IMG/VR virus record: IMGVR_UViG_2698536308_000013
DNA length: 42,478 nucleotides
Reading direction: 5' to 3' (one strand)
Origin: a virus
Taxonomy: Duplodnaviria; Heunggongvirae; Uroviricota; Caudoviricetes
This document shows positions 16,899-33,547 of this stretch, one piece after another. The notes below the pieces were generated by a model. It saw nothing but the letters and a program-made list of their open reading frames with translations, was not told the origin of the DNA and did not search any database. The translations under genes were made by a program, and so were the position numbers. Each line of letters starts with the position of its first letter. Positions within the stretch are counted from its first letter, which is position 1.

Positions 16899-18356
16899 TT
16901 AGGAGCGCCAAAAAAAACCTGAAAACAATATAATAACAGGATAAATTTCAAGGCGACCAAGAATCATAGCTATGCACATTAAATATTTTGCAATGTCATT
17001 AAGCACTCCGAATGACGATGCAGTAGCCCCAAAACCTAATCCCATATTATTAATACATGCAGCCACTGTTGCAAATGATGTAAGAAAATCATATCCCATA
17101 CCATTTAACACCAGTATAAAAAACACCGTGAAGAGAGTATAAAGAAAAAAGAAACTCCATACAGACCTCATTACACGATCTGTAACTATCTTCCCTCCTA
17201 CATTTACACTCAACAACGCTCTGGGATGAGAAAGCTGATTTATCTCGTGTTTGCTTTGTTTGAAAAGTATAAGAAATCGAAGTGACTTAATTCCACCACA
17301 GGTTGAACCTATACATCCCCCAAAGAAACTTGACAACAGCAAAAACACTATCGTGTGCGTGGGCCAGTTTGCATAATCCTGCGTAGCTAAACCATTATCA
17401 GTGAGCATGGAGCTGGCAAGAAAAAACGAATGAATAAAACTTCCATGCAAGTCATACATACCTATATGCCAGACCTGGAAAGAGGTAACAATGATCACCC
17501 CTAAGGCTATTAACAGAAAGAAACGAAGTTCAATATCTCTGATTAAAGGTTTTATCGTTTTTCTGCTAATAACAATATACCAAAGAGTGAAGTTGAAAGC
17601 CGATAGCAGGGAAAAAGAACCAGCCACCAGCTCAACCAAATAGTTATTAAAATATCCGATACTCTCGCTATGAGTTGAGAAACCACCAAGCGAAACTGTG
17701 GAAATCCCGTGACAAATAGCATCAAACAAAGGCATTCCTGCAAGTCTATAACAGACAATACAAGCAATACCTAATAAAGAATAAGTTATCCACAGTGTCC
17801 GTGACGTATCGGCCAGGCGGGGAGTGAGTTTGTCATCCTTAAATGGCCCCGGCATTTCTGACTGATAAAGCTTTGCACCACCAATACCCAATAATGGCAA
17901 TACTGCAACCGCCAGAACAATAACTCCTAAACCACCTATAAAATTTAACTGTGACCGATAGTACAAATATGCCCGAGGTAATGAACTAACATCATCAATT
18001 ACAGTTGCTCCTGTTGTTGTTATTCCAGAAACCCCTTCAAACAGAGCATCAATGAACGTTAAATTAAGTTCTGAGTCAATCCATAAAGGGAATGCACTAA
18101 TAACAGAAAACAAAATCCAAAACATTACAATTATAATAAACCCATCACGGGTACGTAATTGAATGCCAGATTTCTTAGTTGTATACCACGCTCCGCCACC
18201 AATGCAAAAAAATATAACGAAAGTTATAAAGAAAACGAACAGGCTTTTTTCTTTATAAAACAATGCTACAACCATTGGTGGCAACATTGAAAGACTATAG
18301 AGCCAAACCAGGAACCCACACATATGAGTAACAACTCTTACATGAGATGTATTCAT
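16899..18356 (-). CDS. trkG: Trk-system potassium uptake protein TrkG
   Basis: Polytopic membrane protein beginning MNTSHVRVVTHMCGFLVWLY as recalled for K-12 TrkG; low-GC gene next to Rz as in Rac. Confidence 0.9.
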   Translation of the reverse strand: MNTSHVRVVTHMCGFLVWLYSLSMLPPMVVALFYKEKSLFVFFITFVIFFCIGGGAWYTTKKSGIQLRTRDGFIIIVMFWILFSVISAFPLWIDSELNLTFIDALFEGVSGITTTGATVIDDVSSLPRAYLYYRSQLNFIGGLGVIVLAVAVLPLLGIGGAKLYQSEMPGPFKDDKLTPRLADTSRTLWITYSLLGIACIVCYRLAGMPLFDAICHGISTVSLGGFSTHSESIGYFNNYLVELVAGSFSLLSAFNFTLWYIVISRKTIKPLIRDIELRFFLLIALGVIIVTSFQVWHIGMYDLHGSFIHSFFLASSMLTDNGLATQDYANWPTHTIVFLLLSSFFGGCIGSTCGGIKSLRFLILFKQSKHEINQLSHPRALLSVNVGGKIVTDRVMRSVWSFFFLYTLFTVFFILVLNGMGYDFLTSFATVAACINNMGLGFGATASSFGVLNDIAKYLMCIAMILGRLEIYPVIILFSGFFWRS

Positions 18357-18493
18357 ATCTAAATATTCTTTCAATTATAACCACCTTGCTGCAATATTAT
18401 GATTATACTGTATAAAATTTAACTCCTCTTAGATCTTACTTCACTGTTCCTTATGAAACAATCATCAAAATGAATCATATTGTAGTTAAGATT

Positions 18494-18958
18494 TTACTTT
18501 AAACACTGCTCGGTTATGTATTGCTGAGCACCTTCAAGTTGGGCCTGCATCATTACCAGTCGTTCCCGGAGGGTGAAATAATCCCGTTCAGCGGTGTCTG
18601 CCAGTCGGGGGCTGGTTGCATTATCCACGCCGGAGGCGGTGGTGGCTTCACGCACTGACTGACAGACTGCTTTGATGTGCAACCGACGACGACCAGCGGC
18701 AACATCATCACGCAGAGCATCATTTTCAGCTTTCGCATCAGCTAACTCCTTCGTGTATTTTGCATCGAGCGCAGCAACATCACGCTGACGCATCTGCATG
18801 TCAGTAATTGCCGCGTTCGCCAGCTTCAGTTCTCTGGCATTTTTGTCGCGCTGGGCTTTGTAGGTAATGGCGTTATCACGGTAATGATTAACAGCCCATG
18901 ACAGGCAGACGATGATGCAGATAACCAGAGCGGAGATAATCGCGGTTACTCTGCTCAT
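18494..18958 (-). CDS. Spanin inner-membrane subunit Rz
   Basis: [47 protein letters not shown]... recalled as near-identical to lambda Rz. Confidence 0.85.
18553..18738 (-). CDS. Spanin outer-membrane lipoprotein Rz1, embedded in Rz in another frame
   Basis: 61 aa with lipobox LVVVGC and a Pro-rich segment PPPPPAW, entirely inside Rz. Confidence 0.75.
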
Positions 18959-19487
18959 TGTTGCCCCCACAAACAGACTTCACGCTCAATCTCACGACGA
19001 GTCATNNNNNNNNNNNNNNNNNNNNNNNNNNNNNNNNNNNNNNNCCTTTCCATTGCTTACCGCCAGCATATGTCCAGCGACGTAGCTGGTCACATGCGCC
19101 TTTGATATCGCCCTGGTTTATTTTGCGAAGAAGCGTCGATGTTCTGAAATTGCCAGCACCCACGTTGTAGACGAACGAGTACAGAGCGCCGCGCGTTGTT
19201 TCCGGTATATCGACTTTGATGTACGGGTTAATTTGTCTGGCAACCGTGGCAAGGTCTTTATTCAAGAGTGTTTTGCATTCTGCTTTGGTATACGTTTTAC
19301 CGAGCATGATGTCTTTTCCTGTATGCCCGTGACATACAGTCCATACACCAACAATATCTTTGTATGGTATGTAGCTGACACCTTCCAGGCCATCGTCACC
19401 ACTTGGGCCAGTGATTAACACTGATGCTATAGCAATTGCTCCGCCACCAATAGCAGCAGCAACGACTTTTCGTAATGATGGAGGCAT
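18957..19487 (-). CDS. SAR-type endolysin (phage 21 R-like lysozyme), interrupted by an N-gap
   Basis: N-terminal signal-anchor-release-like hydrophobic, Gly/Ala-rich segment ([18 protein letters not shown]); stop overlaps the Rz start; exact 3' portion unreadable because of N-run. Confidence 0.65.
19006..19044. other. Assembly gap, 39 N
   Basis: Run of N in the sequence. Confidence 1.
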
Positions 19488-19953: not shown

Positions 19954-20349
19954 CTAACCTCGCATGTCAAAGCCAGATTTCTGAAAATCTCTGTAGACTT
20001 CCGGATTGTTGAAGGCCGGAAATTTGGCTTTATGAGCTGCGGACTTTATCGCTTCGCAATAGGCTTTATCACCGTTACTGGTAGATATTTTTAACGCCGT
20101 GCCATCCTGAGAGAATTCCATATGCAACCTGCATTTTTTCCCTTTCCAGTTATGCGGCTCATCAAGTTTGGCATTAATTGCAGCTCTGATTCCCCGCGCT
20201 TGCGCCCCCCATTCATCCTGATCATCCCAGCGTCCTGAACTGCAACTACCTGTAGCAGTAGTTTTGTGGCAATCTGAAGGGTGTAAAGGTGTGCATCCCG
20301 CAACAAAACCGACCCAAAAAGTCAACATAACGATTTTCTTTAATCCCAC
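19954..20349 (-). CDS. Predicted lipoprotein, moron, 131 aa
   Basis: Signal peptide with lipobox FVAGC; C-terminal region paralogous to the neighbouring lipoprotein (GKKC-L-M...PEVY--FQ). Confidence 0.6.
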   Translation of the reverse strand: MGLKKIVMLTFWVGFVAGCTPLHPSDCHKTTATGSCSSGRWDDQDEWGAQARGIRAAINAKLDEPHNWKGKKCRLHMEFSQDGTALKISTSNGDKAYCEAIKSAAHKAKFPAFNNPEVYRDFQKSGFDMRG

Positions 20350-20499
20350 TTCTTGCTCCTCAATCCATTAAAATCTCAGCAATAGTAGTTGTTACGTCCG
20401 CCACTGGCTCAGAGCTGACTATCCGCTAAATTTAGCTCAGTGCCGTAGCTGTGTCAGAACAAACCTAAGCCGAAACCGTTTATTACAAAACAATAAATA

Positions 20500-20928
20500 T
20501 CAGGGTTTAAAATCCAGCACCCCATTTTGAAATACTTTATATACTTCCGGCGAAGGGGGGGCAGGTATATCAGCATTCTTTATCGCATTCATCGCTTCAC
20601 GACATAAATCGAGGTCTCCACTTTCTCTTTTAACCTCCAGTAGAAGGCCATTCGGGGCCATATGCATTCTCAGTGTACACTCTTTTCCTGAATACTTACT
20701 CGCATCCCCGAACTGTTTTTCGATGGCGCTCTTGATTTGATGGGCATACAGACGGATATCCTCACTAACATCAGAAGTACGTTCAGATGAACTCACATAC
20801 TGTGTCTCTATTGCTTTATCGGAGTAATATGATGTACGGTCATGATAATTTGTCGATACAGCATCAGTGCACCCGATAATAATCCCACTAATAATCAACG
20901 TAAGAATTGATGCGCTACGAAAACCCAT
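20500..20928 (-). CDS. Predicted lipoprotein, moron, 142 aa
   Basis: Signal peptide with lipobox IIGC; shares a conserved C-terminal block with the 19954..20349 product. Confidence 0.6.
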   Translation of the reverse strand: MGFRSASILTLIISGIIIGCTDAVSTNYHDRTSYYSDKAIETQYVSSSERTSDVSEDIRLYAHQIKSAIEKQFGDASKYSGKECTLRMHMAPNGLLLEVKRESGDLDLCREAMNAIKNADIPAPPSPEVYKVFQNGVLDFKP

Positions 20929-21865
20929 TTTTCCTCACATATGTCATATAGTAAAGGATTATATATACCGTTGTTTTGGACGCTCAAACAGCGAATCAGA
21001 TCAAATAAAACGCACATTTGTTAACATTTACACAAAGTCTGCGTGGGATATTCTGAAAGAATATCCATAATGTGGAGAGAATCTATTGAAGTGCATGGTG
21101 CCGGGTGCCTCCCGGTGAACAAAATGTTCGTGATACCTGTCGGCGACAGAAAAGGTTAATGGTATCACCCCACCGCACAGGGGGATTCACCATGCAGGAG
21201 TTTTCTTAGCAAACTCACTGCGCGCCCGGCAACTCCCAACCACATAAAATGCGGAGTTTGTGGCATTTATGCATATAACTCGCAGGAATTATCTTAAAAA
21301 ACTGATGTCGATCCGGATTAAAAAGAAGCAGGTCATCATCAGATGACTGGAAAAAAGGAAAACAAAAAATACTCATCATACAGTTTTGATTGCAGGGATG
21401 AGCCTGCTATGCACAATATGCAGAATATAAGCAAGATAAAAATATGCAGGCATATTATTTCGGATCTTGTTATTAACACAACCTTTTTAATAATCATTTG
21501 GCATACAATAAACCAGCCCAAAAAGAACCGCCTAAACAGGCGGTTGGTCAATACAAAGGATGCTTCGTCTTTATTATAGTAATCTGAGGCGTCGGGTGTC
21601 TTGTATCAGACAACATATTGTCCCGCTAAACAGCGAATTACAAACCACCCTGCAATGATCTCTCATCTCATTTTATATGAGTTGACGACATCAGGATAAC
21701 GCATCATCAGCCCCTGCCAAGAAATATCAAAACTCCCGCCAGCAATGTGTTATCACAATATTGTAAAAAAAACACAGCACCGAAACTATAACTGGTCTCT
21801 GTTATAATTTGGAGCAGAAAGACCAGTTGCCCAACTAGCAGCATTCTCCCCTGCTTTCCTGACGT

Positions 21866-22515: not shown

Positions 22516-22802
22516 AAATGACCTTTCTTTCTCCAGATTTCTTGTGTGCGAAAAACCCCTTCAGCATGCATCAGGCGCAATTCTTCTTTGGTGTAATCGC
22601 TGGTTTTTACCCGCCCGTCGATTAGATCGTGGCATGAGCTACAGGCTATCGCCGCCTGCATATCATGTGGTTTTGTCGCTGTTCCGCACGTCCCCGCCAG
22701 CCTGTAATGCGCCAGCACAGAGGTTTCGGGATTGTGATTGCAGTAGCCAGGGATTCTGATCTGGCACATCTGGCCTTTAGCCGCTTTACGTAAATTCACC
22801 AT
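22512..22802 (-). CDS. Nin-region protein (DUF1364-like, Cys/His-rich)
   Basis: 96 aa with CxxxxxC...CxxC...CSSCH pattern; translationally coupled to flanking genes. Confidence 0.45.
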   Translation of the reverse strand: MVNLRKAAKGQMCQIRIPGYCNHNPETSVLAHYRLAGTCGTATKPHDMQAAIACSSCHDLIDGRVKTSDYTKEELRLMHAEGVFRTQEIWRKKGHL

Positions 22803-23401
22803 TACGCAAACTCCAGTAGTTGTGCGGCCACATTTTCAACTTCCTCCTGAGAGGAGAATTTACGGAACAGAATCCAGTTCCACAGCACATTCAGTACAGA
22901 TTTATAAACCTGCTGAAACTCGACTTCGTCCATATTCGCAAAAGCGATGGATTTTGCCCGACGCCCACGGCTACCGTCCGGATAAATATGCTCGGTGTAA
23001 AATCCGGCCTGAATGGTTACCCACTCGCGGAAAGCCTCAAACGACTTTAGCAACGCCGTATCCCGGGTTCTACGAGTCGCAACGGTGTTAAGGTATTGCT
23101 CTGCGGCATCACTCAGGGCTGGCGTGTGTTCCCGACCAACTGATTCGCACAGGTAATCAACGAAACCAGACAGCAGTTCTCGTTCGCGAGGCGTGATCGC
23201 CCCACCGACCGGAGTCCAGTAATCGAATCCCAGTTGCAGGAGTTTGAAAAAACGCTTGTGGAATGCGTAGTTACGCACACGCTTAAAGTCTGCGTGTATC
23301 CACTCACCTATTTTGATTTGATGCAGAAAATCGCAACTCTCCGGCGTCGCCGGGAGAAGTAAACCAGAAGAGGTTTGTTTGACCAGTTGTATATGCGCCA
23401 T
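22802..23401 (-). CDS. Nin-region protein (DUF1367-like)
   Basis: 199 aa ORF upstream of and coupled to the DUF1364-like gene; family recalled from prophage annotations. Confidence 0.45.
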   Translation of the reverse strand: MAHIQLVKQTSSGLLLPATPESCDFLHQIKIGEWIHADFKRVRNYAFHKRFFKLLQLGFDYWTPVGGAITPRERELLSGFVDYLCESVGREHTPALSDAAEQYLNTVATRRTRDTALLKSFEAFREWVTIQAGFYTEHIYPDGSRGRRAKSIAFANMDEVEFQQVYKSVLNVLWNWILFRKFSSQEEVENVAAQLLEFA

Positions 23402-23681
23402 TTCTCAATCTCTCGATGGCGCAGCGCAGCAGATGCCAGTTGTTCAGGCTGACGAATAAAGTATAAATAAACTGGCTATGGTGTAAAGCCCCACATAGCA
23501 TGAACAAACACTACATATCAAATAGCTGGTACAAGGATAGAAATACGACACTTATTATTAAAAACGATTAGATAAATTACATTTTAATGTTATGCAAAAG
23601 TTCTTTTTTATCATAACATTTCAATAAAAGCATTACAGATGCAATCATCCCGTCATCATCAATTATTTAAGGTGGTTAAAC

Positions 23682-23768
23682 ATGGAAAATAACAAGTTCG
23701 CACATCTCGCTCCTTTTTTATCCGTAATCCTTTTCGCTTGTTGTTTTATATGGGCATTATTTTTATAA
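23682..23768 (+). CDS. Small hydrophobic peptide, 28 aa (MENNKFAHLAPFLSVILFACCFIWALFL)
   Basis: Strong SD AAGGTGG 6 nt upstream of ATG; single predicted TM helix; isolated in an AT-rich ORF-poor region. Below the ORF-track size cutoff. Confidence 0.35.
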   Translation: MENNKFAHLAPFLSVILFACCFIWALFL

Positions 23769-24176
23769 AGTAGCCACATGATAAGTTGCTGGAATCATAT
23801 TTCCCACTCAAGTCATTAACATTTGATAAGATATATCTAAAAGGACGCCTTTACATTATTTATGCGTATATAATTTATTTATATACACAGTAAAGGTATC
23901 CTGGGAAAATATTTATCGTTAAAAAATACATCATAAATAATTAAGCTGAAATTTCAGAACACAACTAATACACACAATAAGGTTCAGTAACAGTAATCTA
24001 TGTGGACTACATCGAGATTTTTTGATTAAACTTTAATAACTTATTCCTAACACACAGAATGCATAAACTAAAAGTAAAACAAATAGTTATACGAAAAACA
24101 ACCATATTTATTCTATCTTCTCCTCTAATCAACATATCAATTATGTGTTTCATAACAGCTTGACATAACCCTCCAA

Positions 24177-24199
24177 AAGATGCATTTTTAATGCATGTT
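24177..24199 (+). promoter_or_regulatory. NsrR-type operator-like palindrome upstream of the yeaR-like gene
   Basis: AAGATGCATTT-t-TAATGCATGTT; left half matches the recalled NsrR half-site AAGATGCATTT; TTGACA -35-like hexamer at 24160-24165. Confidence 0.45.
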
Positions 24200-24214
24200 T
24201 TGGAGGAGGTGGTT

Positions 24215-24553
24215 ATGACACACAAGAGAATTCCTAAAGATTGGGTAATCAAACGCTCAACTCCGTTCTTCACAAAAGAGAACGTACCTTCAGCGTTATT
24301 AACACATCATAATACAGCAGCAGGTGTTTTTGGGCAGTTGTGCGTAATGGAAGGCACTGTAACATATTATGGTTTTACTGATGAGAATGCTACTGAACCG
24401 GAGATAAAAGTAGTCATTAATGCTGGCGCTTTTGCAACAAGCCCACCACAATACTGGCACCGTGTTGAACTAAGCGATGATGCTCAGTTTAATATTAACT
24501 TTTGGGTCGCTCCAGACTTTTCGGGCGAAAAAGTCTATAGCACCAAAAAATAG
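24215..24553 (+). CDS. YeaR-like protein (DUF1971)
   Basis: About 112 aa; RSTPFFTKENVPSALLTHHNTAAGVFGQLCVMEGTVTYYGF resembles recalled E. coli YeaR; RBS GGAGG 7 nt upstream. Confidence 0.6.
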   Translation: MTHKRIPKDWVIKRSTPFFTKENVPSALLTHHNTAAGVFGQLCVMEGTVTYYGFTDENATEPEIKVVINAGAFATSPPQYWHRVELSDDAQFNINFWVAPDFSGEKVYSTKK

Positions 24554-24582
24554 ATGATCATATTAAAAATGCTTTAACAGTC

Positions 24583-24619
24583 AGACCCGGCAGGGCTATC
24601 CCCGACGGGTCTCATTTTT
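24583..24619 (+). terminator. Rho-independent terminator after the yeaR-like gene
   Basis: AGACCCG...CGGGTCT stem followed by CATTTTT, 30 nt after the stop. Confidence 0.6.
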
Positions 24620-25173
24620 GTAAATATATTGGTTCTACATTGACAGGAGACTTCAACCATAAGAAGTAATCTGAATACTTGAGCAATAAATTTACTTAAG
24701 ATTAATGAGCGCACCTTGCCGGACAAAGATAAACCAAGGTAACACCTTTTTTCTAGCCAGTATGTAATCAATCAGAAAGCCGCTCCATAAGAACAACAGC
24801 AAGACAATAAATTGCCATTACAGCCGCAATAGCCAGCGCACATTTGAGAACCAGCACGACAACCCCCTGTATTAGACGCACACCAGTCCTGATAAATATG
24901 AGGCTGTCTCGTCAGTGATTCAATACAACTATTGGGTATAGTTTCTGTGATTTTATTCTGTAGAAATGGAACACAACAACCAGTCACCACCAGCACTTCC
25001 TTAAATGCTCTAAGTCAGAAACAAGCCAACATTTTAGTCCGCTTTGAGCGATCTGCAGACATTGCTAGCAGCCTTCTGTGTGAATTCTCAGGGAGCAGGT
25101 CGGCATAGCATCACGTTGAGGCTCTTACCCTACTTGTTCACACCAACCCTAACTCCACAGACTGATTCATAAA

Positions 25174-26175
25174 TTAGTAATCTGCGTGTTTCGCACTTTT
25201 CAGAAATGCTTTCATATTTTCATTAGGTCGCTCAATTTCGAAGTTACTTCCATATAACTCTTGTAATTTTGGCCATAACTTACTTAATAACCCTCTCCTG
25301 CGATAAAATGGATGTATCCAAACGGTAGATAGGTACGGAGAATTTGCATTTGAATTGTTTATTGTGACCAGCCCAACTAAACATTGTCGATAACCACTAT
25401 TATCCATTGATTGTATTTCTTCGACGAATGGATACGCGATTACATCAGTCCAACCATGATCGGTTGTATCCCATTGCATTCCGTCATGACATTCCTTCGA
25501 CTGATAGCGGCGTAAAGCTACACACGCGAGCTTTTGCCAATCTGGAGAATTAATTGTGATCTCTTCATCGTATGACGCGCCTATTGGAGCGGGTATTGGT
25601 CTGATTAATCCAGCATGGCATTCATCATAGAACTTCATGTTTCCCTCAGAAACGTTGTGTACGTTGGGTTGCTCCATGTGTGCGCCATTCAAAAATAGCT
25701 CTGATAGTAGTGTATCTACACTGTAATCTTTATTGATTATTGTCGGCTTAGAGTTTTTCTTATTAAGGCCGCGAGTAACGATTTTTTGATCAATGTTAAC
25801 AACATGGAATAATCCGTCGGGGAGGCTAGCGAACCACGATGGGGCATCGGACCAGAATAGCATGCCTTTTGTACTTCTTAAGAGTTTAATTAAGTTAATA
25901 CAAGCTTCTTCACTAGTCTTGCCGTTGATGCGAAGTATGTTAGGACTAAAGTAATATTCATCCATATCAGGGAATGCAGCTTCGCAAAACTCCTGTACAT
26001 AATTTAGCACCTGGATTCTACAGAGATCATCATAGCTGGTAATAACTAAGGGGGTATCTTCATTACTATTATGATTATCAATAATGCAATCTATAGCGAG
26101 ACTTACTGCTTTGCGTATCACTTCAGTTGAATCTAACGACTCTAAAAATTTTGTCTTTCGTGTGCGAATATCCAT
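25174..26175 (-). CDS. Hypothetical protein, 333 aa, with possible C-terminal GNAT-like acetyltransferase fold; second gene of a low-GC operon
   Basis: Clean ORF 15 nt downstream of gene A. C-terminus CLVGLVTINN...STVWIHPFYRRRGLLSKLW resembles GNAT beta4-alpha3 with an R-x-x-G motif. N-terminal 230 aa unrecognised. Confidence 0.5.
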   Translation of the reverse strand: MDIRTRKTKFLESLDSTEVIRKAVSLAIDCIIDNHNSNEDTPLVITSYDDLCRIQVLNYVQEFCEAAFPDMDEYYFSPNILRINGKTSEEACINLIKLLRSTKGMLFWSDAPSWFASLPDGLFHVVNIDQKIVTRGLNKKNSKPTIINKDYSVDTLLSELFLNGAHMEQPNVHNVSEGNMKFYDECHAGLIRPIPAPIGASYDEEITINSPDWQKLACVALRRYQSKECHDGMQWDTTDHGWTDVIAYPFVEEIQSMDNSGYRQCLVGLVTINNSNANSPYLSTVWIHPFYRRRGLLSKLWPKLQELYGSNFEIERPNENMKAFLKSAKHADY

Positions 26176-26190
26176 GTATGACCTGCGCTA

Positions 26191-27213
26191 TTAAAATTCA
26201 TGAATGAACGGTTTGTCATCTGGTTGCAAAATGGTGGTTTTATTCGTTGCTACATTTAAACTGTTGTAGAGCATAATTGCCAGGTTCGATGCATTTTCAA
26301 TCAGCGTTTCAAGATCCTGGTCTGTAATCACTACGAGGTTCCCTTCTTTATCCTTTCCACCACGATGCACTAAGTGATTTCGATTGAGGGTTGCCAATTC
26401 AATAGCTTCTATCGGACAGTCTTTTTGTACTTTTATATCGAATGTAGCTTCATAGCGGTCGATTACCTTTTTAGTGCTATGCCAGCTTGCACTGATCAAG
26501 TGTTCCTTGATTGACCTGATTAGCTCTCCCCTAATTTTCTCGATGGGTTCACCCTTGAAAGGCAACGCAGCAATATCTTTGCTTACTTTAAATTCAGTCT
26601 TACCTTTTTCTATACAATTGGCTATGTAGACATCATCTTTCTCTATAGAATTAATGAATAGCTCAACATAAAGCGTTTCCAAAGCTGTAATAACATTCGT
26701 GTAGAGCAAACTAAGCAAGTGGTTTTTTTGCTGTTGTTCAGTTTTATCTTTTGCAAGTTTTTTTATTTTATCGATATTATCAATGAATTTTAAATACGGA
26801 TTACCGGAAGACGTTACAGCGTCGTAGATATCATCATCGTACCAATCATCTATATTATTTGAGTTTCCAGACCAGTCAAAACATTGTGTTTGTAATTCAT
26901 CTACTAATTCCTCAATATACTCAGATTTAACATATTGACCGAAGATGGATTGTAGTTCTTCGCTCGCATCATACGGCCCGCCATATATGTAAGCATAGCC
27001 ACCTTCTCTACTTTCATACGGACAAGCATTTGCCGGATCTTCAAAGTTTTCAAAGAACCAGTTTTTCATTACTTCGAGTTGATCTTTTTTGCTTATGTAT
27101 TTTAAAGATTTTAGTGGAACTTTCTTTCCATTAACCTCGAAAACAATTTTCACGATGTAACGCTCCCTTGTATCAATTGCGCAACTATTATACCACAGCG
27201 AAATACAGGGCAT
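26191..27213 (-). CDS. Hypothetical protein, about 340 aa, with C-terminal HEPN-like R-x4-H motif; first gene of a low-GC operon
   Basis: Perfect SD AAGGAGG 6 nt upstream of the ATG at 27213 (tracked ORF extends to 27282); C-terminal LNRNHLVHRGG fits the HEPN Rx4-6H signature. No other recognisable domain. Confidence 0.5.
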   Translation of the reverse strand: MPCISLWYNSCAIDTRERYIVKIVFEVNGKKVPLKSLKYISKKDQLEVMKNWFFENFEDPANACPYESREGGYAYIYGGPYDASEELQSIFGQYVKSEYIEELVDELQTQCFDWSGNSNNIDDWYDDDIYDAVTSSGNPYLKFIDNIDKIKKLAKDKTEQQQKNHLLSLLYTNVITALETLYVELFINSIEKDDVYIANCIEKGKTEFKVSKDIAALPFKGEPIEKIRGELIRSIKEHLISASWHSTKKVIDRYEATFDIKVQKDCPIEAIELATLNRNHLVHRGGKDKEGNLVVITDQDLETLIENASNLAIMLYNSLNVATNKTTILQPDDKPFIHEF

Positions 27214-27351
27214 AACCTGCCTCCTTAAACTAACATACCATGAGCCAGCAATGTCCGCTATTGGCACAAAGCGGACAACCACGCTAGCTCTCCCCTGTGC
27301 CAGAAAAATGTCAATTTACATATGAACTAATGCTCTTTGATCTAGTAACGT

Positions 27352-27783
27352 CTATAAATACCGAAGATTTCCTTGATAAAATGCCAGTACACGTTTCATA
27401 ACTTCACTCTTCCGGCACTCGCGACAGATTATGTTCTGACGCCTGTCATAGCGGCGTATTTCTCCGTCTGGTAATGACCAGATAAGGTCAGGATCAACCA
27501 CAACCGTTTTTTTCACCTTTGCCCTGGATAGTTTTTTGCGGGCGTTTTTCCAATCCTTACGAGCCTGTTCAGACGGGAATAACCCATAGCCAGAGTTGTA
27601 TACATCGCCACTGGCAACCAACTCTCTGGCAAGAATGCTCATCAGATATCTTGTCGCACCTGTCTTGGCCTCCAGTTGCCTTAACGTCTCGCGCCCACTC
27701 TGGCGTACCAACTCAACAACCTGCTCCTTAATTTTTTCACGCTCTTCCTGTGTAAAAACTTTTGCCATAAGCGCCTCCGGCAA
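27352..27783 (-). CDS. Hypothetical replication-module protein (position of Rac ydaW), N-terminal HTH-like
   Basis: 143 aa; a diverged partial paralogue is at 29732..29979; start overlaps the upstream gene stop. Confidence 0.5.
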   Translation of the reverse strand: MPEALMAKVFTQEEREKIKEQVVELVRQSGRETLRQLEAKTGATRYLMSILARELVASGDVYNSGYGLFPSEQARKDWKNARKKLSRAKVKKTVVVDPDLIWSLPDGEIRRYDRRQNIICRECRKSEVMKRVLAFYQGNLRYL

Positions 27784-28545
27784 TCACTTTTCCGACACAA
27801 TACGACTGGAGGAATCGACAATCTGTCGGACAATATCCCGGTGCTTGTTCAGCTCCCGCAGCGCGGCGCAGACTCGCTCCCACTTCTGGACATGATTTTT
27901 CGCCCGACGCAGTTCGCGGTTTGCCATATGCAGCGATGGTAAAACTAGGTCATCCGCTTGCGTTTCAGTAAACGATGGCAGCGACTGCACAATGTCCGCC
28001 ACAGTTTCTGTTTTAATATCTTCCTGTGTTGCCGCTTCCTGTACTGGTAACGCAACACCGGCTGGCTGAGGAAAGGCTTTACCATCAGTTTCCGCTACCG
28101 ATGCAGCTTTCGGCTCTGCTGGTAAATTATCGCCCGGCATGCAGTAACGAAATTTACTGTTCTGGTTTACGCGAATCAGGCGTCCTTTGCTGATTGCCAT
28201 TGCCAGCGTTGAAGCAACTTTGCGGGATGTTGTACCGAACAGCGTAGCCAGTTCATCCGCCGTTTGTGGTCCGCGTTGTTCAATCGTCGCGGTTAAATCG
28301 CACTCTGAGATTTTCACTACAGTTGCCGTGGTGGTTTCTTCCGGCAGTTCTGCCTGCATTGGCTGTTCCTGCTGAACGTTGTTATCAGCCACACGCCAGG
28401 TGTACGCGCTTTTATCAACGAAACCAGCTTTTTTCAGTTCCCATAGTTCGTTCAGCACTTCTTCACGACTGATATCAAGTCGCGCAGCAAGTTCTATGGA
28501 TGTGGCTTTTCCCATTGCTTTCAGTGCGTCAAAAACAGTCTCCAT
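27784..28545 (-). CDS. Hypothetical protein (DUF1627-like, N-terminal winged helix)
   Basis: Start chosen at [13 protein letters not shown] with SD GGGAGG; Glu/Thr/Ala-rich low-complexity middle; family name recalled, not verified. Confidence 0.45.
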
Positions 28546-28567: not shown

Positions 28568-29314
28568 TTACTTCTCAATTCCTGGCTGGACGACATTCGG
28601 ACGCCAGCTCTCCCAGTTAAAATTCACCCATCGCCCGCCGTTCATGGTCATGCGATCCATAATCCGCTCGCCGAGCAATGTTTTCATGGCCTCATAGTTC
28701 AGGTTTGTCAGCATCCCCACGCTGCGCATCGACGCTGTCCGGCGATCAACAATCTGGTGCAGCACCACCTGCTCGTTTTTCGTCTCGCGCTGAATGCCAA
28801 TTTCATCAAGAACCAGCAGATCCACTTCGCATAGTTCCCGCAAAAATTTTTCGCCTGACTGCCCATCGTCATAGCTGGCGTGCAGGGCACTCATAACATC
28901 AGCCACGGTAACCACAATCACTGTCTGACCGTCTTTCAGCAGGCGATTCCCGATAGCTGCCGCTAAGTGATTCTTCCCGGTACCAGGTTTTCCGCTGAAC
29001 GCAAAATTTGTACACCCGGTCATCAGTTCATCAGCGATGGATTTCGCCTGACTCAACGCGTATCGCTGCGCTTCGTTCTGCACCTGGTAATTCGAAAACG
29101 AGCATTTGCGGTGCAATGGCTGGATGCCAGAGCGATTCAGAATTTTTTCCACCCGCAACTGACGATTCTGACGGTTGATCTCCTCACAACGTTTCTGGCC
29201 TTCGGAAAGTTGCCACTCGCGCCACTCCGCTACCGTCTTGAATGGCGCGGTTACATGTGACGGGGCCAGTCTGCGGATACGTTCAAGAACGTCGCCTGTC
29301 GCAATATTTTTCAT
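28568..29314 (-). CDS. ydaV: DnaC-like helicase loader (Rac YdaV-like), copy 1
   Basis: 248 aa with Walker [14 protein letters not shown] and Walker B LLVLDEIG; IstB/DnaC-type architecture. Confidence 0.85.
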
Positions 29315-29320
29315 GGTCAG

Positions 29321-29720
29321 TTACCCCCTGAAGCCTGGCGGGATCGCACTATCCGGTAACGAGACGGTGTTAACCTGTCGGAGTAACGTCTCAGGTCGAA
29401 CACCTTTCGGCGCGAACAAGCCCTGGTATTCATTGGCGATGCTGTGTCGAATCACCTGCTCAGGTGAAAAACCCTGCTGGCGGAATTTTTCCAGCTCCCG
29501 TATCGCCCCGTTAGCGCCCTGCTCCGTTCGAATCGGTTTTCGCAATGCCTGGCGAAATTCAACCCACTCACGCCAAAGCGAGACAGAAATCCAGTTCGGC
29601 AAAGCAATATCCAGAGGGTCAAACTTTTTGACACCTCGATTCCCCCGGGGGGGATTTAGGGGGGGATCTGTTTTTAGATCTTTATCTGTATCTTTATTAG
29701 TTGCCTTTGTGTTGACATCA
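29321..29720 (-). CDS. C-terminal fragment of an O-like replication initiator (ydaU-type), cut at its 5' side by an N-gap
   Basis: Nearly identical (2 mismatches in first 80 nt) to the 3' end of the ydaU-like gene at 32696..33090; the gap begins exactly where identity would end. Confidence 0.6.
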
Positions 29721-29731
29721 NNNNNNNNNNN
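29721..29731. other. Assembly gap, 11 N
   Basis: Run of N in the sequence. Confidence 1.
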
Positions 29732-29979
29732 ACTCTCGAGAGTTTTTTGCGGGCGCTTTGCCAGTCCTTGCGAGCCTGTTCAGACGGGAATAAGCCGTAG
29801 CCAGAATTATATACATCACCACTTGCGACCAGTTCTATGCATAAGCGACCGACAGACGCACGACTGATACCTGTTTCATCTGACAACTGCCGAATCGTGA
29901 CCCGACCGTCCTGATGCACGAGTTCCACAATTCGCGTCTTCAGTTCTTCCCGCTGTTCGGGAGTAAAAGGTTTCGCCAT
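29732..29979 (-). CDS. Partial paralogue of the 27352..27783 gene (N-terminal HTH part), 3' end lost in the gap
   Basis: MAKPFTPEQREELKTRIVELVHQDGRVTIRQLSDETGISRASV...; about 85 percent nucleotide similarity to copy 1. Confidence 0.5.
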
Positions 29980-29993
29980 AAATCCTCCTGAAA

Positions 29994-30740
29994 CTACTTA
30001 ACAACCCTCGAATGGCTAACATTCGGACGCCAGCTCTCCCAGTTAAAATTCACCCAGCGCCCGCCGTTCATGACCATGCGATCCATCACCCGCTCGCCGA
30101 GCAATGTTTTCATCACCTCATAGTTCAGGTTTGTCAGCATCCCCACGCTGCGCATCGACGCTGTCCGGCGATCAACAATCTGGTGCAGCACCACCTGCTC
30201 GTTTTTCGTCTCGCGCTGAATGCCAATTTCATCAAGAACCAGCAGATCCACTTCGCACAGCTCCCGCAAAAATTTTTCGCCTGACTGCCCGTCGTCATAG
30301 CTGGCGTGCAGGGCGCTCATAACATCAGCCACGGTAACCACAATCACTGTCTGACCGTCTTTCAGCAGGCGATTCCCGATAGCTGCCGCTAAGTGATTCT
30401 TCCCGGTACCAGGTTTTCCGCTGAACGCAAAATTTGTACACCCGGTCATCAGTTCATCGGCGATGGATTTCGCCTGGCTTAACGCGTATCGCTGGCCGTC
30501 GTTCTGCACCTGGTAATTCGCAAACGAGCATTTACGGTGCAACGGCTGGATGCCTGAGCGATTCAGAATTTTTTCCACCCGCAACTGGCGATTCAGGCGG
30601 TTGATCTCCTCGCTACGTTTCTGGCCTTCAGCAAGTTGCCACTCGCGCCACTCCGCTACCGTTCTGAATGGGGCGGTTACATGTGGCGGGGTCAGTCGGC
30701 GGATGCGTTCCAGAACGCCGCCTGTCGCAATATTTTTCAT
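29994..30740 (-). CDS. ydaV: DnaC-like helicase loader (YdaV-like), copy 2
   Basis: 248 aa, about 95 percent identical to copy 1 with the same Walker motifs. Confidence 0.85.
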   Translation of the reverse strand: MKNIATGGVLERIRRLTPPHVTAPFRTVAEWREWQLAEGQKRSEEINRLNRQLRVEKILNRSGIQPLHRKCSFANYQVQNDGQRYALSQAKSIADELMTGCTNFAFSGKPGTGKNHLAAAIGNRLLKDGQTVIVVTVADVMSALHASYDDGQSGEKFLRELCEVDLLVLDEIGIQRETKNEQVVLHQIVDRRTASMRSVGMLTNLNYEVMKTLLGERVMDRMVMNGGRWVNFNWESWRPNVSHSRVVK

Positions 30741-30746
30741 GGTCCG

Positions 30747-31423
30747 TTACCCCCTGAAGCCTGGCGGGATCGCACTGTCCGGCAACGAGACGGTGTTAAC
30801 CTGTCGGAGCAACGTCTCAGGCCGAACACCTTTCGGCGCGAACAGGCCCTGGTATTCATTGGCGATGCTGTGTCGAATCACCTGCTCAGGTGAAAAACCC
30901 TGCTGGCGGAATTTTTCCAGCTCCCGTATCGCCCCGTTAGCGCCCTGCTCCGTTCGAATCGGTTTTCGCAATGCCTGTCTGAACCGGACCCACTCATGCC
31001 AGAGTGTTTCCGGCAACCAATCGGGCAGCTCAATAGCCTCCGGCTCGAATTTTTTAGACGCTCGTTTTTGGCGAGGGGGAGATCAGTATTTAGATCTTCC
31101 TCTTCCTCTTCCTCTGGTAACGCTTTTTGATCCGTTTGTGTAACGCTGGCAGCGTTACCTTTTCGTTTCAGTTCGCGTATTTTTGTTACTCGCTCGTTTG
31201 TAACCGCCCGTTTTTTTTAGAGCTTTTTCCGTTATGACGTTCAAAGTTAGGTAGAGAAAGCCCTCCGTCATTTTCGACCAGCCATCCAACCTGAATTAAC
31301 GCATCAGCAAAACCAGACATAAAAGTGATGCGATCTATTGCACTTTTTGTAACGCCGCGAGCGTTACAATCTGCATTACCGTCTATCATTTGTTGATCCG
31401 CCCATGCCCAGAAGCGAATAACC
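30747..31423 (-). pseudogene. O-like replication initiator with a different N-terminal domain, 5' end truncated by the IS, probable frame disruption
   Basis: C-terminal 89 aa match the other O-like copies; upstream part (31186..31423) is in another frame; a T8 homopolymer and a CTCTTC x3 repeat lie in between. Confidence 0.5.
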
Positions 31424-31487
31424 TGAGGTAGCCTGAGTTTAACGGACACTCCTTCCTGAAATAGAATGGCATCAGAAGGAGCTAATA

Positions 31488-31790
31488 ATGAGCAGAAAAA
31501 CCCAACGTTACTCTAAAGAGTTCAAAGCCGAAGCTGTCAGAACGGTTCCTGAAAATCAACTTTCGATCAGTGAAGGCGCTTCCCGATTATCTCTTCCTGA
31601 AGGCACTTTAGGACAATGGGTTACCGCCGCCAGAAAAGGGCTCGGTACTCCTGGTTCCCGCACGGTGGCTGAACTGGAATCTGAAATTCTGCAACTGCGT
31701 AAGGCGTTAAATGAAGCTCGCCTTGAGCGAGATATATTAAAAAAAGCAACAGCGTATTTTGCACAGGAGTCGCTGAAAAATACGCGTTAA
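31488..31790 (+). CDS. IS3-family transposase OrfA (HTH)
   Basis: 100 aa ending ...LERDILKKATAYFAQESLKNTR, typical IS3 OrfA leucine-zipper C-terminus. Confidence 0.85.
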   Translation: MSRKTQRYSKEFKAEAVRTVPENQLSISEGASRLSLPEGTLGQWVTAARKGLGTPGSRTVAELESEILQLRKALNEARLERDILKKATAYFAQESLKNTR

Positions 31791-31825
31791 TCGAACAATG
31801 GCGACAACAATTTCCCATTGAAGCG

Positions 31826-32644
31826 ATGTGTCAGGTATTTGGTGTATCCAGGAGCGGTTATTACAACTGGGTACAGCATGAACCCTCAGACAGAAAACAA
31901 AGTGATGAGCGGCTAAAACTGGAGATTAAGGTGGCACATATCCGCACTCGCGAAACATATGGAACCCGGCGGCTCCAGACGGAGCTGGCAGAGAATGGCA
32001 TCATCGTTGGTCGTGACCGACTGGCACGTCTTCGTAAGGAGCTAAGGCTACGCTGTAAGCAGAAACGCAAGTTCAGAGCGACTACGAACTCGAACCACAA
32101 TCTGCCAGTTGCGCCAAATCTGCTGAACCAGACGTTCGCTCCTACAGCACCAAATCAGGTCTGGGTGGCGGACCTGACGTATGTTGCCACACAGGAGGGA
32201 TGGTTGTACCTCGCTGGCATCAAAGATGTTTATACGTGCGAAATTGTCGGCTACGCCATGGGAGAGCGCATGACAAAAGAGCTGACAGGTAAAGCCCTGT
32301 TTATGGCGCTCAGGAGCCAGCGCCCACCTGCCGGGCTAATCCACCACTCTGATCGAGGTTCACAGTACTGCGCATACGATTACCGGGTCATACAGGAGCA
32401 GTCTGGTCTGAAAACATCAATGTCGCGTAAAGGTAACTGTTACGACAACGCTCCGATGGAAAGCTTCTGGGGAACGCTGAAAAATGAGAGCCTGAGCCAC
32501 TATCGTTTTAATAACCGGGATGAAGCCATCTCAGTAATACGGGAATACATTGAGATTTTCTACAATCGTCAGCGTCGTCACTCTCGTCTGGGGAATATCT
32601 CCCCGGCAGCCTTCAGGGAAAAATATCATCAGATGGCTGCTTAA
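31826..32644 (+). CDS. IS3-family transposase OrfB (DDE catalytic domain); frame opens upstream and is normally fused to OrfA by -1 frameshift
   Basis: Contains …VWVADLTYV… and …HSDRGSQY…, consistent with an IS3-family DDE integrase core. Confidence 0.85.
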   Translation: MCQVFGVSRSGYYNWVQHEPSDRKQSDERLKLEIKVAHIRTRETYGTRRLQTELAENGIIVGRDRLARLRKELRLRCKQKRKFRATTNSNHNLPVAPNLLNQTFAPTAPNQVWVADLTYVATQEGWLYLAGIKDVYTCEIVGYAMGERMTKELTGKALFMALRSQRPPAGLIHHSDRGSQYCAYDYRVIQEQSGLKTSMSRKGNCYDNAPMESFWGTLKNESLSHYRFNNRDEAISVIREYIEIFYNRQRRHSRLGNISPAAFREKYHQMAA

Positions 32645-32688
32645 AAAAAGAACAAATGGTAGTGTCCGCTATTGCCAGTACACCTCAN

Positions 32689-32695
32689 NNNNNNC
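32689..32695. other. Assembly gap, 7 N
   Basis: Run of N immediately after the IS right end. Confidence 1.
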
Positions 32696-33547
32696 CCTGA
32701 AGCCTGGCGGGATCGCACTGTCCGGCAACGAGACGGTGTTAACCTGTCGGAGTAACGTCTCAGGTCGAACACCTTTCGGCGCGAACAAGCCCTGGTATTC
32801 ATTGGCGATGCTGTGTCGAATCACCTGCTCAGGTGAAAAACCCTGCTGGCGGAATTTTTCCAGCTCCCGTATCGCCCCGTTAGCGCCCTGCTCCGTTCGA
32901 ATCGGTTTTCGCAATGCCTGGCGAAATTCAACCCACTCACGCCAAAGCGAGACAGAAATCCAGTTCGGCAAAGCAATATCCAGAGGGTCAAACTTTTTGA
33001 CACCTCGATTCCCCCGGGGGGGATTTAGGGGGGGATCTGTTTTTAGATCTTTATCTGTATCTTTATTAGTTGCCTTTGTGTTGACATCATGTTCAAACAC
33101 CACTTCAACATCTGTTTGAACACCTGTTAAATTTCTCTCTTGTTTTGTTTGAACATCTGCTTCCTTTCTGCTTCTTCTGGCCTGAACAGATGCTTTTCCT
33201 GCGGCTGATTTTTTGGTTAATTTTTCCCTGACTGATGCCAGATCTTCCTCAATCCGAAGATGCACCCATTCCTCGCCGTTATCGCAAAAAAACTCCTGCA
33301 AGGATGGTTCAACATCAGCCCATCGCTCGTTAGTCAGACGGGCAATTTTTGCCAGCCTGTTTTTAGGTATTGGCTTTCCTGTTTGCCAGTAATTGAACAT
33401 CAGCAACAAATACGCACCATGCTCCTCTGCTGACAAATGCATGGTGTCAGCCAGGTAATCAGCTATGTACAGTTGCATGTATGGTAATGCGGCCATAATT
33501 GCCCCGTATGATGCTGCCCGGTGGCTTAGAATAAGCACAAACAGCAT
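32696..33547 (-). CDS. ydaU: O-like replication initiator (YdaU-like, DUF1376-type N-terminus), 3' end abuts the N-gap
   Basis: N-terminus MQLYIADYLADTMHLSAEEHGAYLLLMFNYWQTGKPIP fits the DUF1376 pattern; C-terminal block shared with the other two copies; likely start near 33496. Confidence 0.65.

Follow-up and report, generated by a model that had tools for sequence, protein, structure and literature searches.

Does the AT-rich DNA that interrupts a lambdoid prophage represent a single island of foreign genes, or several units with separate histories? The question is raised by positions 23402–27300 of IMG/VR record IMGVR_UViG_2698536308_000013, a Caudoviricetes sequence of 42,478 nucleotides (nt) that is called the window below. 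A preliminary description had taken these 3.9 kb for one horizontally acquired and probably H-NS-silenced island. The window is a Rac-like lambdoid prophage on the minus strand, and its cargo region is composed of four pieces: a leader, a yeaR-like cassette, a conserved element and a two-gene HEPN/GNAT cassette. The last of these lies between two 24-nt palindromes, which we call U and D and which also bound unrelated cargo in other phages. These sites are the most interesting result of our analysis; their architecture and statistics are observed, and the mechanism by which they would act is our proposal.

The AT-rich region is a mosaic

A near-identical region is present in Escherichia coli JP538, in a Rac-type prophage that adjoins trkG and contains recE, kilR, sieB and ydaS/T/U/V, then DUF1627 and DUF977 genes. 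In the window, one flank of the AT-rich stretch is the replication module (ydaU/ydaV/DUF1627/DUF977, with DUF977, or 'LygF', as its last gene), and the other is the DUF1367–YbcO/DUF1364–DUF1133 (Q-like) block, which confirms the placement given in the preliminary description; the yeaR-like gene on the plus strand and the two-gene unit on the minus strand are also found where it put them. The compositional difference is real. Guanine-cytosine (GC) content is 37.8% over 23402–27300 versus 46.8% over the remainder of the window, and among all 3.9-kb segments (mean 0.4595, standard deviation 0.0295) the lowest value, 0.374, belongs to the one starting at 23501. Third-codon-position GC differs in the same way: 0.35–0.36 in the three genes of the region versus 0.48–0.61 in six flanking genes (DUF1367, YbcO, Q-like, DUF977, DUF1627 and ydaV).

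The limits of the region have to be redrawn. Homology on the DUF1367 side stops at 23769 in four sister prophages (M18, W284, ATCC 8739 and strain 3059) and at 23450–23466 in three others, and on the DUF977 side Rac-like relatives align again from 27363–27374 and Qin-like phages from 27249. These boundaries enclose a variable region from 23770 to about 27362 rather than 23402–27300. No direct repeats or target-site duplications of note were found flanking the AT-rich region. The four pieces are as follows.

23402–23769: backbone leader of the DUF1367 gene, not cargo, recognized by homology to sister prophages
23770–24752, plus strand: YeaR-like (DUF1971) cassette with AT-rich upstream region, operator, gene and terminator
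24753–25036, minus strand: conserved backbone element between two cargo slots
25037–27276, minus strand: two-gene HEPN/GNAT cassette

Each piece has its own distribution over 5426 complete E. coli genomes, the set used for all genome counts here. The DUF1367 gene with the adjacent leader (22802–23480) occurs in 1330 of them and the conserved element (query 24740–24995) in 1710. Leader plus yeaR-like module (23402–24752, at least 80% covered) is found in 450, independently of the HEPN/GNAT pair, while at least partial matches to the same query exist in 852, many of which cover the first ∼370–380 nt alone. The HEPN gene and the GNAT gene are each present in 209 genomes, 208 of them at ≥99% identity. 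Because these counts differ so much (450 for one module, 209 for the other and 13 for the whole block with both), the region is a mosaic and not one island. Horizontal acquisition of cargo with foreign composition is upheld, and the block is far from universal on DUF1367-type backbones (13 versus 1330 genomes), but the single island gives way to at least two independently exchangeable cassettes with conserved backbone elements between them.

Other cargo substitutes at this place in related prophages with the same flanks. Strains 3059 and M18 carry IetA/IetS, annotated as anti-phage; ATCC 8739 and W284 carry an ATP-dependent (OLD-like) nuclease with Dcm and Hok/Gef; strain 106 has an ATPase, an O-methyltransferase and Dcm; SA53-3 has sce7726, a 'beta' protein and hokD; J3 has a YobI NTPase and hokD; another prophage has Ea22-like genes and hokD; and phage Evi has a regulator and an acetyltransferase. 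Proteins of 444–449 residues at the slot match PDC-S15 in phage Tritos and PD-T7-1 in mEp460. Since sister prophages with the same flanks hold defence and toxin genes, the slot is a hot spot for defence and toxin–antitoxin systems.

U and D sites bound the HEPN/GNAT cassette

A 46-nt inverted repeat, 25024–25069 paired with 27244–27289, brackets the HEPN/GNAT cassette, and within its two copies lie the following sites, both given in minus-strand reading.

27253–27276, minus strand: U site, GTCCGCTTT-GTGCCA-ATAGCGGAC, starting 123 nt before the HEPN start codon
25037–25060, minus strand: D site, GTCTGCAGA-TCGCTC-AAAGCGGAC, starting 113 nt after the GNAT stop codon

U and D are 24-nt palindromes whose 9-nt arms (GTCCGCTTn / nAAGCGGAC) are common to both and whose 6-nt centres are not; the window contains one exact match to the stem pattern, versus 0.00 expected. 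In Evi, Tritos and mEp460 the same pair, 80% complementary over 34–40 nt, encloses unrelated cargos. Homology breaks inside the sites: centre and outer arm remain on the backbone side, and the inner arm moves with the cargo. Both sites also accompany the HEPN/GNAT cassette in Serratia grimesii and in four metagenome loci where the outer flanks are unrelated; U sits at –123 there, and D either at +113 or at +160.

The exact U pattern is present in at least 120 IMG/VR contigs. Among the matches listed, DUF977 lies upstream of U in 54, the 284-bp conserved element lies downstream in 41 (at 18 distances) and the HEPN gene is found in only 7, whereas a D-type site follows in 71, with at least 37 distinct cargo clusters of 541–6715 bp. 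The second frequent type of flank belongs to a P2-like phage: there the cargo separates the tail-fibre-assembly gene from the tail-sheath gene (G/FI slot), and the inverted repeat continues beyond the sites (...TCTGACA / TGTCAGA...). Identical 24-mers delimit cargo in the lambdoid DUF977 slot, in the P2-like G/FI slot and in a CP4-like island, and these backbones share no other homology. Eight of ten sampled cargo proteins gave PADLOC matches (PD-T7-1, DarG, TIR/ThsB-like, PDC-S15, PDC-S33 twice, an HNH effector and a protease).

Cassettes can also follow each other head-to-tail, with roughly 15–20 nt from a D to the next U. Two-cassette slots exist in phages, one metagenome contig (L113:268-5626) holds an array of three, two of which encode proteins without Pfam or PADLOC match, and in another (L117:92-6673) a Gabija cassette (GajA + GajB) sits directly upstream of the HEPN/GNAT cassette. 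When sites were selected by stem only, 45 further ones were recovered in the 120 loci listed versus 0.6 expected. Their centres are TCGCTC (29), GTGCCA (5) and close variants, and a single one of the 45 is in reverse orientation. Conservation of the 6-nt centres equals or exceeds that of the arms, in which positions 8–9 and 16–17 drift.

These properties suggest how the sites could work. Cassettes would be exchanged between mobile elements exactly at U and D: crossover of U with U together with D with D would swap a promoter-plus-gene cassette between otherwise unrelated elements, and U would be unable to recombine with D, so that slots would never be left empty. U and D would then be heterospecific 9-6-9 recognition or crossover sites of a natural cassette-exchange system, a reading that we put forward tentatively and, on present evidence, hold to be rather unlikely. 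It has structural parallels only. Like integrons, the arrays consist of promoter-plus-gene units with short imperfect palindromes in one orientation and head-to-tail order, and like heterospecific lox/FRT sites, U and D combine shared arms with different 6-nt centres. Integron attC sites themselves were rejected as candidates, as there are two sites per cassette, no IntI-type integrase nearby and, by an informal check, no clear R''/R' core, and as arms and centres have sequences other than those of attC; REP/BIME elements, dif/Xer sites, IS200/IS605 ends and nut/boxA were likewise set aside by informal comparison with their consensus sequences.

Alternatively, U and D may be transcriptional or RNA-processing hairpins (insulators or terminators) that come along with morons, with the swapping done by homologous recombination over short homology (RecET or Red). 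This possibility deserves serious attention, even if we would place it short of an even chance. Rac-like phages do encode RecET, and the sites are located in untranslated cassette ends. No recombinase was found linked to the U/D sites or consistently adjacent to them, no integrase-like gene adjoins the cassette array in the inspected flanks of three loci (L223, L224 and L253), and no empty slot, in which at most 30 nt would separate the backbone half of U from that of D, was present in viral contigs. Together with metabolic cargo between some U/D pairs (a BCCT transporter, an HAD hydrolase, a VOC protein and an oxidoreductase) and stems without compensatory covariation, this weighs against a defence-shuttling exchange system. 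The missing covariation also counts against a hairpin, as does the lack of a T-run after either stem. Hairpins also would not account for two discrete centre types that stay fixed in U-to-D order and orientation while the arms drift, for breakpoints inside the sites, or for identical 24-mers in non-homologous backbones. Since the centres are conserved in two types, covariation is absent and mismatches (both G.T and A.C occur) show no strand bias, an RNA hairpin or a terminator would explain the pattern less well than a site for a sequence-specific protein or for recombination.

Returning to the exchange of cassettes at U and D, its setting resembles the P2/P4 hot spots, where a fixed slot between conserved phage genes accepts many alternative anti-phage systems. 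The P2-like slot between tail-fibre-assembly and tail-sheath genes holds part of the U/D cargo found here; the slot of the window differs in belonging to a lambdoid (Rac/Qin-type) phage. A 2026 paper on P2/P4 hot spots (PMC13586616) left the movement of defence genes to unrelated elements unresolved, as transposons are nearly absent and homologous recombination needs shared flanks. Neither this paper nor an earlier one (PMC9122126) contains the terms 'hairpin', 'palindrome', 'inverted repeat' or 'stem-loop', and searches with six 10–14-nt U/D fragments found no relevant paper, although the searched literature is incomplete and novelty is therefore not proven. Satellites or islands may carry the same U/D cassettes (L162, L253). 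At L253, two integrase-like open reading frames (ORFs) lie ∼1–2 kb beyond the D site.

The HEPN/GNAT cassette

Between U and D are two genes separated by 15 nt, with the following features.

26191–27153, minus strand: 320-aa protein with HEPN/RES-NTD1 and a RiboL-PSP-type HEPN domain with Rx4H motif (RNHLVHR)
25174–26175, minus strand: 333-aa protein with a family-specific N-terminal domain of ∼200 aa and a C-terminal GNAT fold
27195–27187, minus strand: extended –10 element TGgTATAAT ahead of the HEPN gene, inside the cassette
27168–27163, minus strand: Shine-Dalgarno sequence AGGGAG of the HEPN GTG start

The extended –10 element has no good –35 hexamer and was hence missed by a consensus scan. 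The GTG start assigned by PGAP at 27153 agrees with the N-termini of homologues. The first protein has the four-helix up-down fold and the Rx4-6H motif of the HEPN superfamily. In 45 homologues, down to 26% identity, R258, H263 and R264 of the RNHLVHR motif are invariant, and so are W224-H225 and, in the N-terminal part, M29, W32, F33, P40, P45, G52, G58-G59-P60 and W94. PF18870 (HEPN_RES_NTD1) matches 44 of these 45 family members at E ≤ 0.01 (best 1e–6), and HEPN_RiboL-PSP (PF18735) matches 19. Relatives occur in 394 species-level genomes from many phyla, usually with no conserved neighbour.

This architecture recalls aRES, in which PF18870 precedes a RES domain and which comprises stand-alone abortive-infection defence proteins (Osterman et al., bioRxiv 10.64898/2026.01.28.702374). 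Both have HEPN/RES-NTD1 ahead of a toxic effector domain, and most relatives of the window protein are solo genes, as aRES are in defence islands, where they cause growth arrest of the abortive-infection type. The effector here, in contrast, is a predicted HEPN RNase (Rx4H) and not a RES NADase, a GNAT-like gene follows in the same operon in this clade, and the protein is known from its sequence. As no effector domain other than HEPN was found, domain content makes the protein an analogue of aRES and not a member. NTD1 is listed with HEPN and RES fusions in Anantharaman et al. 2013 (PMC3710099); we also found it fused to a PIN nuclease (P0117), and with RES, PIN and HEPN as partners it appears to behave as a portable domain. 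A second parallel is HepS of Gifsy-1, a solo HEPN abortive-infection anticodon nuclease triggered by a phage protein (PMC13043305). It too belongs to a lambdoid prophage, has the HEPN Rx4-6H motif and no obligate partner, and occupies the equivalent accessory slot after the replication genes.

By analogy, we infer that the HEPN protein acts as a stand-alone abortive-infection RNase, since the same NTD1 precedes the RES effector in solo-acting aRES. The RNase would be inactive at first; a phage cue acting by way of NTD1 would release it, and its cleavage of RNA (tRNA or mRNA) would then bring the infected cell to a halt.

The second protein is less easily placed. Its first ∼200 residues form an alpha/beta domain which, when searched alone against 1.84 billion representative proteins, returned 21 relatives, all from its own small family; full-length relatives are 329–346 aa long, and none has a different domain partner. 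The C-terminal part has the GNAT fold, and only generic GNATs were matched in a viral fold library. Acetyltransf_1 scores 19.9 bits, below its cut-off of 20.7, and matches 16 of 41 family members. Profile searches against sequences of solved structures gave noise only. Because the cofactor motif is partly degenerate and Phe takes the place of Tyr (see below), the protein may not be an enzyme. Most likely it modulates or adds to the HEPN defence and would not be an obligate antitoxin.

The two genes are adjacent and co-diverge in 56 loci (84–100% identity for HEPN, 73–100% for GNAT), 53 of which, from Escherichia, Serratia and Aeromonas, keep the 15-nt spacer. These loci are in E. coli prophages, in a Serratia grimesii island and in an Aeromonas mobilisable element beside a SIR2 gene. 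The HEPN gene is paired with GNAT whenever its identity is ≥84%. Solo GNAT relatives are found on an integrative and conjugative element and beside HigBA, PD-Lambda-4_A, PD-T4-5/AbiD-like and PDC-S06 genes, and solo relatives of both genes are found near PD-Lambda-4, PD-T4-5/AbiD, PDC-S06/PrrC-like, PD-T7-5, ApeA and SIR2. The pairing thus arose once, from two modules each able to exist alone, and this independent existence argues against an obligate toxin–antitoxin relation. Two observations stand apart. In L162:3352-7002 a solo GNAT-like gene comes directly after a P4-type primase gene. A 3.3-kb sequence from a Collinsella sp. metagenome-assembled genome (JAIHTM010000277.1) is identical to the E. 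coli DUF977-HEPN-GNAT region, and its Collinsella assignment is probably binning contamination.

The yeaR-like cassette

The other cargo gene has its own signals, as the preliminary description had reported.

24215–24553, plus strand: DUF1971/YeaR-like protein, 112 aa (Pfam, PGAP)
24177–24199, plus strand: predicted NsrR-type 11-1-11 operator AAGATGCATTTTTAATGCATGTT, its last base 16 nt upstream of the start codon
24583–24620, plus strand: intrinsic terminator of the yeaR-like gene, a hairpin with T-run

PGAP starts the gene at 24215 (the ORF had earlier been started at 24191) and names the product 'DUF1971 domain-containing protein'; the Pfam DUF1971 score is 91.9 bits versus a cut-off of 23.1, and identity to YEAR_ECOLI is 41% over 111 residues. 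In the promoter region lies the 11-1-11 inverted repeat AAGATGCATTT-N-AAATGCATCTT, a type of NsrR site published for ytfE, hcp, yeaR and tehA, among others (PMC5320621, Table 4). The predicted operator has two mismatches to the ytfE NsrR site AAGATGCATTTAAAATGCATCTT, and the match is unique in the window, with 0.02 expected by chance. Other prophage copies carry operator variants, ...CATCTT (one mismatch) or AAGGTGCATTTATAATGCATGTT; as they retain the motif while the surrounding sequence changes, the motif is evidently kept. The terminator hairpin AGACCCG...CGGGUCU, followed by CAUUUUUG, has a predicted stability of –19 kcal/mol (z = –3.08; 0 of 200 shuffles as stable).

A DUF1971 member with an 11-1-11 NsrR-type repeat at its promoter is reminiscent of chromosomal yeaR-yoaG. 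The prophage operator is closer to the ytfE site than is the operator of chromosomal yeaR itself, and, unlike yeaR-yoaG, the unit is prophage-borne and monocistronic, with its own terminator and no yoaG partner noted. Host NsrR would repress the gene, and nitric oxide or nitrosative stress would switch it on, as for chromosomal yeaR; we infer this NsrR-repressed, nitric oxide-inducible expression from the operator sequence. With an operator and promoter region, a terminator and low GC, the unit has the autonomy and the foreign composition of a 'moron', and given the predicted NsrR control it could be one that benefits host fitness. Phage 666R9 retains the module beside different neighbouring cargo. 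The cassette is not bounded by U and D, as the interval 23000–28000 holds only the two sites described above.

Weighing the explanations

Our explanation as a whole, with the yeaR-like unit as a moron, the HEPN/GNAT pair as defence and U/D as the points of exchange, is one towards which we lean slightly. That the two-gene cassette is an anti-phage system is plausible but unproven, and several results weigh against it. The NTD1 score of the window protein itself is 22.2 bits (E = 1.9e–4), under the Pfam cut-off of 27.4. In PADLOC-DB v2.0.0 the best HEPN E-values are 0.011–0.031 over short stretches, none significant, and the GNAT-like protein, like the yeaR-like one, has no match at all; PADLOC, NCBIfam and PHROGs offer no functional name for the two-gene cassette, and no paper on HEPN + GNAT systems or on these accessions was found. 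The acetyl-CoA motif Q/R-x-x-G-x-G/A is kept only in part (R292 is invariant, the Gly positions vary and the last one is Leu or Met), and the position of the catalytic Tyr of many GNATs is taken by Phe. No convincing terminator was found after the GNAT gene. Finally, HEPN relatives at ≤76% identity are solo in 64 loci with room for a partner, and GNAT relatives at ≤62% identity, plus three at 86%, are solo as well.

If the cassette were a toxin–antitoxin module that stabilizes the prophage, with a HEPN RNase toxin neutralized by GNAT (for example by acetylation; compare MntA, which AMPylates HepT), the tight operon, the near-constant spacer and the co-divergence would be expected, Hok/Gef toxins at the same slot in sister phages would be fitting company, and HEPN toxins neutralized by a modifying enzyme are indeed known. 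But solo HEPN genes, including relatives at 63–76% identity, and solo GNAT-like genes at 86% and below speak against it; the toxin-first order and a 333-aa partner are atypical, and aRES, with the same N-terminal domain, and HepS act alone and are not toxic at rest. The type VII pair HepT/MntA also differs in detail, since the partner here has a GNAT fold with no nucleotidyltransferase domain found, the HEPN protein has an extra N-terminal domain and both genes exist solo elsewhere. We consider such a module improbable. The same solo genes in defence-rich neighbourhoods, together with the faster divergence of GNAT than of HEPN within pairs (e.g. 79% versus 86%), would suit two independent single-gene defence or accessory modules that are neighbours by chance, GNAT having an unrelated function. 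This is a more credible, if still doubtful, reading: against it stand the equal counts of both genes in E. coli at near-identity, the fact that a U...D pair encloses both of them behind only one promoter-like element, and the 15-nt distance retained in 53 of 56 loci. Least probable by far, and hardly to be entertained, is that the region is decaying, H-NS-silenced foreign DNA without current function. Very low GC, down to 30.5% over 23402–24190, is in its favour; yet hundreds of genomes have the three genes intact and at ≥99% identity, distant homologues retain the catalytic and structural residues without exception, few copies of the block are disrupted by insertion sequences, and the NsrR operator, extended –10 element and terminator are in place. 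The predicted operator and –10 element would argue for regulated or constitutive expression over the blanket silencing that had been supposed.

Backbone elements and small ORFs

The stretch 23402–24190 had been described as ORF-free. This does not hold for its first 368 nt, a conserved part of the prophage backbone in which a promoter-like site and an ORF of 28 aa, also conserved, are found.

23487–23460, minus strand: promoter-like site TTTACA-16-TATACT, kept in 77%-identical variants
23682–23768, plus strand: unannotated 28-aa hydrophobic ORF (MENNKFAHLAPFLSVILFACCFIWALFL) with Shine-Dalgarno sequence AAGGTG, recognized by conservation
24768–24857, minus strand: 29-aa hydrophobic ORF (MLVLKCALAIAAVMAIYCLAVVLMERLSD) with GTG start, inside the conserved element

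The promoter-like site is the best sigma-70-like site of the region and lies ∼60 nt upstream of the DUF1367 gene; its position and its conservation in diverged relatives suggest that the DUF1367-YbcO-Q block may have its own promoter. The 28-aa ORF keeps length, start, Shine-Dalgarno sequence and frame at ∼77% nucleotide identity, with many synonymous changes. It is antisense to phage early transcription, backbone homology with the four sisters ends at its stop codon, and its exact sequence had no match in the protein collection. By size and composition alone it resembles a type I toxin.

The element at 24753–25036 is never annotated in RefSeq. In pairwise comparison, 24753–25051 is common to phages with quite different cargo, and the element adjoins differing cargo in phages Evi, Tritos and mEp460 and in strains J3 and SF-166. 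In Qin-like phages it always follows this order, with the cargo slot on one side and hokD on the other, and hokD begins ∼200 bp downstream of it. Its 29-aa ORF, labelled 'putative membrane protein' by a few depositors, is preceded by the Shine-Dalgarno sequence AGGAGG in most variants, and seven variants show seven synonymous changes versus three conservative replacements. At gathering thresholds, an Rfam scan of the whole window detected only RalA and STnc100, both outside the AT-rich region, and a permissive scan of 23200–27500 returned two chance-level matches and nothing on the hairpins.

Other features of the window

A second AT-rich patch (GC 0.36–0.40) is found at 17001–18500. Two genes for TolA C-terminal-domain-like lipoproteins, 19954–20928 and 21039–21225, both on the minus strand, lie between the Q-like and lysis genes beside the STnc100 small RNA match, and their composition (GC 0.41–0.43) suggests that they are further cargo.

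The window contains three N runs, in the region 29721–32694 and at 19006–19044. Between two of them, 29732–32687 holds a second, diverged DUF977'/ydaV/ydaU copy: 28593–29578 and 30019–31004 are 94.7% identical, and 32695–33000, after the last N run, repeats 29326–29631 at 99.3%. Only one DUF977/ydaV/ydaU copy is present in the reference Rac-like prophage, and the duplicate has the appearance of an artefact of scaffolding or assembly, or else of an inserted block.

Implications

Prophage slots filled with defence genes are well known, and the island as first described would be an ordinary moron and defence hot spot. Within it, however, is a candidate anti-phage cassette that ∼4% of complete E. 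coli genomes carry, those of UTI89 and of the type strain ATCC 11775 among them, and whose HEPN protein is predicted to be the RNase counterpart of the newly validated aRES family. If the proposal for U and D is true, they would explain how defence genes shuttle between elements without flanking homology. Exchange mediated by these sites would provide a concrete, testable mechanism by which mobile elements rapidly reshuffle their defence genes, and U and D could then serve as a simple sequence tag for mining new defence cassettes.

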